Positions 14 to 52,693 of a DNA stretch of 64,000 nt are shown here, one piece after another (within the stretch, counting starts at the first letter, position 1; every line of letters begins with the position of its first letter). The position numbers and the translations under genes were made by a program. The DNA is taken from assembly GCA_000165345.1 (NCBI GenBank), contig CM000430.1, positions 128,001 to 192,000 of the forward strand, in the 5' to 3' direction. The notes under the pieces are model-generated. The model worked only from the letters and a program-made list of their open reading frames with translations, was not told the DNA's origin and did no database searches.

Positions 14-3000
14 ATGAACGAGACAAGTATACCTTCTTATCAATTTGTAATTCTTTGCAATATAATAAGTTTAAGACTTTACCACATTCATGTGATAAAT
101 GGTGAGATCCAAAAAGCAATGATTCATTTAAAGATTCATTGTAGAACACTTCGAGAATTTGGAACAAATCATCCAAAATTTAAATTTTTGTCATCACTAT
201 GGCTTTCTCAGACATTGCAAAAACTTGCTTCAGTACTTTTTTTTCACCTTGTTAATAAGAGCTTTATTCAAGATCAAAGTATAAAAGAAGATACAAAGCT
301 ATGTCAGAATAATCATCATAAATATCCAGATGGACTTGAATTCTCGTTAATCCCATTATCTATAGGTAATAAACACGAAAAAATCATTTCCAGAATTTCA
401 GAATCTTGTAGAGAGAATTGTACGTTTAAGTTTGAAAATGAAAACCTTGGTGATATTCTCTCTTCAATTGCTAGATCAATTCAAAATATTGTGATTAATA
501 TTAATAATAATAATAGCCAATGCGATAATGTAATTTCAGATGAATTGAATGGAAAAGATGACAGTAATAAAATTGAAGATCGTTCTGGTATTACTATATT
601 AAACAATAACAATAATCAGAATAATATAGTACTTGATACATTAATAAACATTTCCAAACTTTATAAAACTTCAGCAGAATACTCTCATCTTTCAAAAAGT
701 CAATTAATTGAATTTTGTAATGAATTTGATACAGAATTATTCAGTAATGACCAAGAAATTGGAGGAGAGATTCTTCCTCCTCTTTCACTTGGGTGTTTTG
801 AAGAACTTTCATCTCCTGAAACTTTTCTTGAGTATGAAAGAAAAGGGCTCTCCAGTACTAGCCAACATAAAACAACTTTTGATCAACTCAGTAAACTTTG
901 CTCACTTTATATAGGCTCAGATTCTTTTGACATTAATCAGATTGAAGACAGAAGCATTGCTTCAGAGGTTCTTGCATCTTGCGAGATTGTTAGGAGAAAC
1001 ATTAAATCACTCATTAATTCCAAATCTTTATTCTATAGGTCCATCTCACTTTTTTACACTTCAGCAGTCATTTACAGACATTTTTATCCAATTAATTTAT
1101 TTAATACCATCTCCCAACAAAATATTAACCTCAACACAAACACTGAATCAGAAATACCCCAAAAAAATGTTGCGATTAATAATAATAATAATAATAATAA
1201 TAATAATTTGTCCACATTAAATAGTACCCCTGACAATAAATGCAATCAGCCCGCACCGACAGTGCATGTGGACAATGCATGTCAGAGTGGATGCATGCAG
1301 GCGGGTGCAAGTATGGCAGATAGTACTACCGGTACTAATGGTCAGAATCCGGGTGAACTGGTGAATGTTGGTTCTGGAAATTTTACTACAGCACCTACAA
1401 TTCCCTCCAAAATTGCGGCAGGACAAGTTTTCGGACAACTGACGGATCGTTTCTTTCAGATGATTTCCTTTTCCTTTGCTGAGTATTTGTTTGAGGAAAA
1501 TTATATCAACTGTTCTCTAAGTATTTTTGAGGCAATCTTTCAGTCAATCATTCCAAAACATGTTTTTGCTGAAATCAGTAGGCTGACTACAATTGATGAG
1601 CAACAAAATAAATTTTTTGGAAAAAGAAAGGCAAGAATATGGGAAATTGTGAATCCACAAATGACTAATACATGTTTTCAAATAACAAATAGTTACTTTG
1701 ATTCAAACTTTTGGTTATTTTTAAAACGAGTTTGCACTCGGATACTTGAATGTCTTGCTATTCAAAATTTAAATTTGGAAGAAAGAAAAAATATTCCCAA
1801 AATTACTATTTCTAATACAAGTTCTGAAAGTAAATTATTTGGTAATAGCAATATCAACAACTCCAATCTATATAATAATAGCAATATTAAGCAGGATGGT
1901 CAATATATTTATTCAGTTGTCTCAAGTTTCTTAGCAGTATTAAAACCAAAAAGAACATGGACACAAGGCCAAAATCAATGTAAACATAAAAATAATATTC
2001 CAAATCATTGTTCAATTCTTATTCTATCTTATTTAATTATTTCAAATTCTCTTGAAAGGGGCTCAGAAACTGCATGTAAAATAGAAATTGAAGCCTTTTA
2101 CAAATGGATTCAAGTACTATATTACAAAGTATTGAATAATAATATTACTAGTAATAATGAAGGTGATCACTCAAATAATATTAGTAATTCTAATACCATA
2201 CAACAACTCACTCCAGTTCTTACAGGTAGTAAAGCCCAAGTAAAGAATATCTTATTTACTCATTTTCTTCATAACAATTATTCCACAATATTACAAGATC
2301 AATCAATTCCCGATAGAATCATCATAATGATTCATCATTTCCCGACTTTTCTTAACGTATTTATTAATTCCAGAATGGAAACTACCCTTGTGACCAATAT
2401 TGGAATATTGGGAGTAATTATTGAGAAATTTGAAGTTGTTGAATTTGAAGAAGTTGGGAGATTGAACTCTCAATTATCATTGCACTGTAGGATTAGACGT
2501 GTGAACTATATTCCACAGAATTATGAAGATCATCATTCCAGAAAATTATTCTATCAAGTTTATCGTCCATCAATCCTTATTTTTGGCATATTCCTATATC
2601 TGTTCGTATCAAATTCAAACCAAGCTAATGATTATATCAAGTTTGGAATCAATAATTTAAAATACTTTAATTATCAAAAATCGATTTCAAATTTGACAGG
2701 AAGTAATATATACAACTTTTCTTATGTTCAATTCTGTCTCAGAAACCCATCACTATCATATTTTACATGCATTGGAAGTTGGCTACGTCATTCAAGAACA
2801 CTTATATATAATACTCCTAATTTGCAAATTGTTCCAGGTGGATTTTTAGATTTATCTACAAATTCTATAGCAAATCCAGTTCCAATTTATAAAGTTCCTG
2901 TTGATGATTTGCAAATCTTGTCAAAGTTTTCTCAACCATTTAACTCTCTACCAATATTTCACAAGCTTGTTACTAATAATATAAAGTTTAATGATCAGTT

Positions 3001-52603: not shown

Positions 52604-52693
52604 TTGCATGCATGACTGGTTATTCTTTTTTGAATTAAAATTTAATGTGGACAAATATTTAGTACCGGTGTATTAGTAATGCGCATGCATGTG
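52604..52693. promoter_or_regulatory. Motif cluster upstream of the LCCL gene: TGCATGCATG, AATGTGGACAAAT, GCGCATGCATG
   Basis: tttgcatgcatgactgg ... ttaatgtggacaaatat ... aatgcgcatgcatgtg, 210-300 bp upstream of the ATG at 52906. Confidence 0.55.

Follow-up and report, generated by a model that had tools for sequence, protein, structure and literature searches.

In a 64,000-nucleotide stretch of chromosome 2 of Cryptosporidium parvum, a parasite that causes diarrhoea (hereafter the window; assembly GCA_000165345.1, contig CM000430.1, positions 128,001 to 192,000), the ten-nucleotide word ATGTGGACAA occurs five times. This word, whose general form is H-ATGTGGA-[C/T]-AA and whose C-to-T variant reads ATGTGGATAA, is enriched, is conserved between species, co-occurs with other short words and lies beside genes upregulated in females. 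It is very probably a sequence-specific transcription factor binding site within composite modules that would drive the expression of female gamete (macrogamont) and oocyst genes in the intestinal Cryptosporidium species. In these modules, its companions would be ApiAP2 sites of the TGCATGCA type, E2F-like sites (GGCGGG) and a partner word, TACCGGTAT; we infer that a protein binds the word and activates transcription.

Transmission of Cryptosporidium relies on female gametes and oocysts, and the cis-regulatory code of that stage is nearly blank, its catalogue being limited to TGCATGCA-like, G-box and E2F motifs. A conserved element of 10-11 bp with a recurrent partner word, marking crystalloid-body, oocyst-wall and other macrogamont genes, offers probes to identify the factor, a test of direct action of AP2-F (cgd4_1110) on its seven dependent genes and a design rule for female-specific synthetic promoters. 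Likely regulatory DNA is also found inside an open reading frame (ORF) and in a 3'-3' spacer, positions that promoter-only motif scans skip. New here are the invariant 10-mer core, its cross-species footprints, the ORF and 3' spacer copies and the partner word, as well as the spread of the element to crystalloid-body, LCCL, SUN and metabolic female genes.

A ten-nucleotide word recurs in the window and in the adjoining DNA

Exact protein matches place the window on chromosome 2, where it runs from cgd2_580 to cgd2_830; its G+C content is ~30%, and gene names were fixed via published identifiers, with cgd2 numbers increasing from left to right. The five exact copies of ATGTGGACAA (Table 1) compare with 0.07 expected from dinucleotide shuffles. 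Markov simulation gives an expectation of 0.14 (order-3) or 0.25 (order-5), and the analytic order-3 value is 0.112. An earlier note on this DNA had described a 13-15-mer present five times. Each of its five copies was found in the exact 10-mer count, and the contexts that it gave (two in the giant ORF, one in a 3'-3' spacer and one each in the SUN-domain and LCCL promoters) are correct. However, the 13-mer AATGTGGACAAAT has only three copies in the window (1206-, 8078+, 52644+), so the unit common to all five is the 10-mer. All five occurrences of the 8-mer TGTGGACA in the window fall inside the full 10-mer.

The chance figure of 0.1-0.3 copies in the same note agrees with the Markov and analytic values, but it ignored the choice among ~500,000 10-mers that could have been noticed, for which a multiple-testing correction is required. 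In a lax control, some 'complex' 10-mer reached five dispersed copies in 10-18% of Markov-simulated windows. This count was judged too loose and was replaced by a min-p test under the order-3 model. In this test, ATGTGGACAA has p = 1.3e-7 and 1 of 100 simulated windows held any 10-mer that extreme, which corresponds to a window-wide corrected p of ~0.01. The word is the fourth most extreme 10-mer in the window, after three AAT-repeat words and slightly more extreme than the well-known TGCATGCAAA. By itself, the window is thus significant at ~0.01, and the decisive support comes from outside it. When the adjoining 9.2 kb of the same chromosome were added (L011; the overlap with the window is identical), two further exact copies of the pre-specified word were found, against 0.02-0.04 expected (p = 1e-4 to 6e-4). 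Both orientations are used, with 13 sense and 5 antisense copies (p = 0.10).

The word is enriched in promoters of macrogamont genes

As an independent set, we used the promoters of 65 co-regulated macrogamont genes (Hasan et al. 2024, supplement S6, PMC11078545), scanned over ~390 nt each, ~22.4 kb in total. ATGTGGA[C/T]AA occurs 14 times in this set, in equal numbers of exact copies (6 ATGTGGACAA and 1 TTGTCCACAT) and C-to-T variants (5 ATGTGGATAA and 2 TTATCCACAT). The 7 exact copies compare with ~0.04 expected by the Markov model (p = 3e-14), and they still exceed the density of the already enriched chromosome 2 region (p = 0.006). Exact copies are carried by the promoters of COWP8 (cgd6_200), cgd6_3280, cgd7_4810, cgd7_5140, cgd8_920 (two copies) and cgd3_190, and C-to-T copies by those of cgd3_1540, cgd6_200, cgd6_3460 (two copies), cgd6_4880, cgd6_3280 and cgd8_4300. 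Near-matches differing at positions 9-10 were found for CCp2 (cgd7_300), NEK (cgd7_5050), cgd7_5130, cgd8_4290 and others.

Counts of the ATGTGGA core and of the partner word in these promoters were made by eye from the printed sequences, and the p-values derived from them are approximate. The core is present in at least 19 of 64 promoters, compared with 8.7% expected, and TACCGG/CCGGTA in at least 20 of 64, compared with 4.7% expected (a conservative 18/64 was tested, p = 5e-10). TACCGG appears mostly as TACCGGTAT, often 0-60 nt from the motif. Among the seven AP2-F-dependent genes, the core is found in six, whereas at least 13 of the remaining 57 macrogamont promoters have it (Fisher p = 0.002, approximate).

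Composite modules lie in and beside female-upregulated genes

The same association of words is seen on chromosome 2. The 73 kb examined contain just 21 GCATGC sites, and yet 4 of 6 loci have one at most 80 nt from the motif, compared with a background of 4.4% (p = 5e-5); GCGGG/CCCGC co-occurs with the motif to a similar extent. Four of the 10 TACCGG/CCGGTA sites in the 73 kb lie at most 60 nt from ATGTGGA[C/T]AA (p = 1e-5). The copies in the cgd2_580 ORF and in the cgd2_590/600 3'-3' spacer thus carry the full promoter-type word set, and they are whole, conserved modules like those in promoters. Frame +2 stays open across both ORF copies. The boundary of the 590/600 spacer is firm because the public transporter models have a common C-terminus; at the N-terminus (6551-6700), these models vary (407, 426, 450 and 453 aa).

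To relate the loci to expression, we used RNA sequencing (RNA-seq) data comparing sorted asexual stages with sorted females (Tandel 2019) and listed the genes within cgd2_580-900 with a change of at least 3.9 log2 as female-upregulated. Five of these genes (580, 590, 650, 790 and 850) hold or adjoin 5 of the 6 motif loci, when ~30% of the sequence would qualify by chance (binomial p = 0.011). Expression of cgd2_790 is down 1.25 log2 upon AP2-F ablation, and cgd2_850 appears in an oocyst-wall list derived by spatial proteomics (LOPIT) and contained in the script that accompanies Tandel 2023.

The earlier note had considered the distribution of copies unlike that of a simple promoter element. 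The odd positions are real, but they are explained as promoter-like modules in or beside two female-upregulated genes. Intergenic space is scarce in this genome, and the embedded modules would serve the co-regulated pair cgd2_580/590 as an internal or alternative promoter or as an enhancer. The supplement of a study of long non-coding RNAs (lncRNAs; PMC7840661) has no entry for cgd2_580, 590, 600, 640, 650 or 790 and thus gives no support for antisense transcripts starting at the odd modules.

A possible variant module lies in the MFS gene cgd2_800 (Table 1). The C. ubiquitum MFS gene has no match to it at up to one mismatch, so that the function of this possible module is doubtful.

Footprints in other Cryptosporidium species

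Orthologous loci were compared in C. ubiquitum, C. felis, C. canis, C. meleagridis, C. bovis, C. xiaoi, C. andersoni and C. muris. Genome-wide, coding identity between C. parvum and C. ubiquitum is ~77%, and an exact match in the orthologous C. ubiquitum spacer remains for only 4-14% of the intergenic 10-mers of C. parvum. For the motif, 3 of the 5 intergenic copies are exact in C. ubiquitum (p = 0.007), and the other 2 read ATGTGGATAA at the same place. The copy in the 640/650 spacer forms an island within poorly alignable DNA. In the 590/600 spacer, the 10-mer is always preceded by GGCGG(G/T) and 4-5 nt. In the CCp3 promoter, TTTAGTACCGG and GCATGCATG do not vary between C. parvum, C. ubiquitum and C. 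felis. Only orthologues, and no LCCL paralogue loci, were obtained when CpCCp3 was used as a homology query.

Inside the cgd2_580 ORF, the two copies behave differently. At the 1208 site, C. ubiquitum reads TTGCAAACAT; this copy thus lacks conservation and was probably gained recently. In the 1266 module, ~35 nt (CATGTGGACAATGCA.GTCAGAGTGGATGCATGCA) differ by one base between C. parvum and C. ubiquitum and have no synonymous differences in a codon alignment, which in the surrounding low-complexity linker is rich in indels and substitutions. This near-invariant island within a highly variable linker points to constraint on the DNA and not on the protein.

Since none of these sites is present in the four species that are more distant (C. 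bovis, C. xiaoi, C. andersoni and C. muris), the sites are restricted to the intestinal parvum-ubiquitum-canis-felis group. In the C. felis assembly (L003 13234-18604), the cgd2_580 orthologue has no gene call, and BLAST similarity is found there at 67-80% identity; this is probably an annotation gap. The syntenic C. canis locus has a G+C content of 46.8%, against 26-33% in the other eight species, and despite this it retains the 3'-3' spacer motif and the ultra-conserved leader upstream of cgd2_640 described below.

Relation to known regulatory motifs

The word was already glimpsed in degenerate form in 2013, since ATGTGGACA fits at every position the 'unknown motif' 5'-A[T/A]G[T/A]GGA.A-3' that Oberstaller et al. 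(2013, PMC3734150) noted in the upstream DNA of Class II oocyst-wall protein (COWP) genes. Position 8 of our word, where C repeatedly changes to T, coincides with the wildcard of that consensus. Both motifs are linked to the expression of late, oocyst-forming genes, and COWP8 has one exact and one C-to-T copy. However, the published motif is a degenerate 9-mer from a handful of COWP promoters, it is outside the 25 motifs of that paper and no factor was assigned to it. In a review, the table of promoter motifs known from C. parvum is limited to TGCATGCA, GCACAC, G-box, E2F, GAGA and CAAT. A literature search with a motif 8-mer returned primers only, and one for a Cryptosporidium motif containing TGTGGA gave nothing relevant. 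The text of Hasan 2024 (PMC11078545) mentions neither GTGGA nor CCGG, and the partner word appears in neither Oberstaller 2013 nor Hasan 2024.

In Plasmodium, a female-specific ten-base element, TGTRNNYACA, is bound by PFG together with AP2-FG (PMC10945693); outside Plasmodium, the species named there for PFG are Toxoplasma, Eimeria and Vitrella only. Like our motif, it is a 10-bp female-gamete cis-element that starts with TGTG and lies upstream of LCCL/CCp and wall-type genes. Unlike it, the Cryptosporidium motif is not palindromic and has no dyad symmetry, and at position 9, for which the consensus requires C, every copy (TGTGGACAA[A/T/C]) has A. The G-box-like word of cgd8_810, a female-specific gene with a late peak, has the start ATGTGG in common with the motif but GGGG instead of ACAA in its 3' half, and the G-box core G.GGGG is absent from ATGTGGACAA.

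Alternative explanations and candidate factors

The most serious alternative is that the word is merely a 3'-extended form of the ApiAP2 site TGCATG(T/C)(G/A), for which cgd2_3490 or cgd1_3520 would be the reader. This macrogamont-promoter motif was assigned to cgd2_3490 by Hasan et al. 2024 (PMC11078545), who found it enriched in these 65 promoters, and some of our copies overlap it through their 5' CATGTG. Two of the seven regional copies read TGCATGTGGACAA, and in 21 instances the base at position -1 is C (11), A (6) or T (4), G being absent there. However, GC precedes the word at -2/-1 in only 5 of these 21 instances and is lacking in 5 of the 7 regional copies, most instances being preceded by TTTA, TCCA, TTTC or TTTT. 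Most instances of the motif thus lack the TGCATG core of the AP2_1 site (TGCATGCA / TGCATGYR), and the invariant, conserved information lies in GGA[C/T]AA, a part that the AP2 site does not contain. Distinct GCATGC sites also lie 27-48 nt from the motif inside the same modules. We consider this explanation unlikely.

It seems still less probable that the word is an RNA-level element, such as a translational-repressor site on maternal mRNAs (UGUG...-type, PUF-like) in untranslated regions (UTRs) and coding sequence. Relative to a plausible female transcript, four of the seven regional copies lie in the sense direction (580 coding, 590 3' flank, upstream of 790 and 850), and the overall excess of sense copies goes in the same direction. 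However, 5 of 18 are antisense, including the conserved 18471 copy (relative to SUN) and the 890/900 copy, and the flanks are unstructured. The canonical PUF element is UGUANAUA, which the motif does not fit. Translational repression has been reported in female Cryptosporidium (PMC11078545), but the promoters of the same study had their annotated 5'UTRs trimmed and the motif is still present in them.

That the copies are fragments of a dispersed repeat or mobile element, or form a small structured DNA or RNA element, is essentially refuted. Two copies have 17 nt in common (ATTTAATGTGGACAAAT), and those at 1208 and 1266 are perfect 10-nt inverted repeats of each other, separated by 48 nt. Against this, similarity between copies ends after 10-17 nt with unrelated flanks, the copies are orthologous between species and not transposed, the inverted partner of 1266 is absent in C. 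ubiquitum, and flank folds (z-scores -0.55 to -2.26) have no shape in common and no Rfam match. The earlier note had proposed a transcription factor site that is also part of a small dispersed structured element; these results dispose of the second half of that proposal. The first half is borne out by enrichment in female-stage promoters, by the use of both orientations and by two of the checks that the note suggested, namely co-occurrence with GCATGC and CCCGC/GCGGG, and conservation in orthologous spacers, where all five intergenic sites are exact or C-to-T in C. ubiquitum. Finally, a chance cluster noticed because many words were inspected, to which the lax control lends some colour, is already refuted by the min-p test and by replication of the pre-specified word in the adjoining DNA, in other species and in the separate set of macrogamont genes.

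For a binding site that drives female genes, several results are unfavourable. cgd2_630 is female-upregulated, yet the motif is absent there within two mismatches in C. parvum, and the motif predicted for cgd2_910 (+4.3 log2 in females) is absent in C. meleagridis and C. ubiquitum. The conserved cgd2_890/900 copy adjoins no female-upregulated gene, and the orthologous spacers of the four distant species lack the sites. Motif discovery published on the same 65 genes gave TGCATG(T/C)(G/A) only (Hasan 2024, PMC11078545). The association tests are post hoc and local, and the scan of macrogamont promoters covered ~390 nt of each.

As for the factor that would read the word as a binding site, AP2-F is the leading candidate, although a tentative one. 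Of the three AP2 domains in this protein, one has no known motif, which makes a long composite site plausible. It is possible, although less likely than not, that ATGTGGA[C/T]AA and TACCGGTAT together constitute a response element through which a specific regulator, with AP2-F as our best guess, controls the late-female, crystalloid-body and oocyst-wall programme, and that the embedded modules are genuine internal promoters or enhancers. If so, Cryptosporidium would place stage-specific regulatory DNA inside ORFs and convergent spacers.

Table 1. Genes, copies of the word and modules. L002, L003, L009 and L011 denote the compared C. ubiquitum, C. felis and C. canis loci and the adjoining C. 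parvum DNA, respectively; a sign after a coordinate gives the strand. Expression is the change in females.
Feature	Position	Strand	Product, content or context	Expression or orthologous loci
cgd2_580	2-5557	+ (frame +2)	giant ORF	+3.9 log2
cgd2_590	6632-7912	+	nucleotide-sugar transporter	+5.0 log2
cgd2_600	8515-10218	-	CCT-alpha	
cgd2_630	14544-15749	+		+4.2 log2
cgd2_640	16651-17670	-	metallo-phosphatase	
cgd2_650	19155-21233	+	SUN-domain gene	+4.1 log2
cgd2_790	52906-56649	+	CpCCp3, LCCL	+12.0 log2
cgd2_800	57455-59269	+	MFS	
cgd2_850				+8.1 log2
ATGTGGACAA copy	1208-1217	-	in cgd2_580 ORF; inverted pair with 1266 copy	
cgd2_580 ORF module	1250-1334	+	CCCGC 1250-1254, ATGTGGACAA 1266-1275, ATGCATGCA 1291-1299, GGCGGG 1300-1305, TACCGGTA 1327-1334	
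590/600 3'-3' spacer module	8000-8088	+	CCCGC 8000-8004, GCATGC 8031-8036 and 8048-8053, GCGGG 8070-8074, ATGTGGACAA 8079-8088; copy 167 nt past transporter stop, 427 nt past CCT-alpha stop	exact: C. ubiquitum (L002 12127-), C. canis (L009 18780-); lost or absent: C. felis, C. bovis, C. muris
640/650 divergent spacer copy	18471-18480	-	ATGTGGACAA, 675 nt upstream of SUN ATG, 801 nt from cgd2_640 ATG	exact: C. ubiquitum (L002 1650+), C. felis (L003 3038+); C-to-T (ATGTGGATAA): C. canis (L009 9185+); lost or absent: C. bovis, C. muris
cgd2_790 promoter module	52606-52688	+	GCATGC 52606-52611, ATGTGGACAA 52645-52654 (-261 from LCCL gene ATG), TACCGGT 52663-52669, GCATGC 52683-52688	C-to-T (ATGTGGATAA): C. 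ubiquitum (-260); lost or absent: C. felis, C. xiaoi; C. andersoni only minus-strand ATGTGGAAA at -179
Possible variant module in cgd2_800 ORF	58438-58467	-	TACCGG 58438-58443, CATGCAT, ATGTGGATAA on minus strand 58458-58467	
Extra exact copy, cgd2_850 promoter (L011)	360 nt upstream of cgd2_850	gene's strand	ATGTGGACAA	exact: C. meleagridis, C. ubiquitum; lost or absent: C. felis, C. andersoni, C. xiaoi
Extra exact copy, cgd2_890/900 spacer (L011)		antisense to both neighbours	ATGTGGACAA	exact: C. meleagridis; C-to-T: C. ubiquitum
Partner word TACCGG(TAT)	52663-52669, 1327-1334, 58438-58443; L011 ~592-597 (extended coordinate 72651)			

Conserved non-coding blocks and a second dispersed word

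Neither Rfam nor tRNA scans gave a match in the window or in two conserved non-coding blocks. The first block lies upstream of cgd2_640 (~17890-18130, minus strand: GAGGACAAAACGTT..ATGGGGTACATGGAGACTTGATCCATTTGT..GACGTAATGTCGTC..TGTATGTAGATGTGCTTGCATACAGATTT) and is ultra-conserved, with a core that is near-invariant in C. parvum, C. ubiquitum, C. felis and C. canis, and largely in C. bovis. Over ~213 nt, identity to C. parvum is 88% in C. ubiquitum, 83% in C. canis, 77% in C. felis and 72% in C. bovis. The block holds no ORF and has no Rfam match, and it is followed by an intron-like sequence. Covariation is uninformative because its predicted stems are almost invariant. This block could be a non-coding RNA or a conserved leader.

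The second block (~8270-8440) lies in the 590/600 3'-3' spacer, ~190 nt downstream of the motif copy, and reads ATATAAACTTAG..CTAAAGTATTTCAC..TTGCCGCCTTT..GCCGTTACA..ACCTGG..GTTGGGC. It is common to C. parvum and C. ubiquitum and partly to C. canis, has no Rfam match and may represent a transcript that is missing from the annotation.

A second dispersed word, (A)ATTACGTG(T), is found at 18775, 27634, 36995(-) and 57070, and in the extended region at 68147(-) and 72722; it may be an ACGT-core (bZIP-type) site. TTACGTGT additionally occurs at 16127(-), 42553(-) and 60262. AATTACGTGT has four copies against 0.08 expected, at mainly intergenic sites, one of which lies 4 nt after the 890/900 motif copy. 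In the 640/650 spacer, CAACACGTAATTGG is kept between C. parvum and C. ubiquitum.

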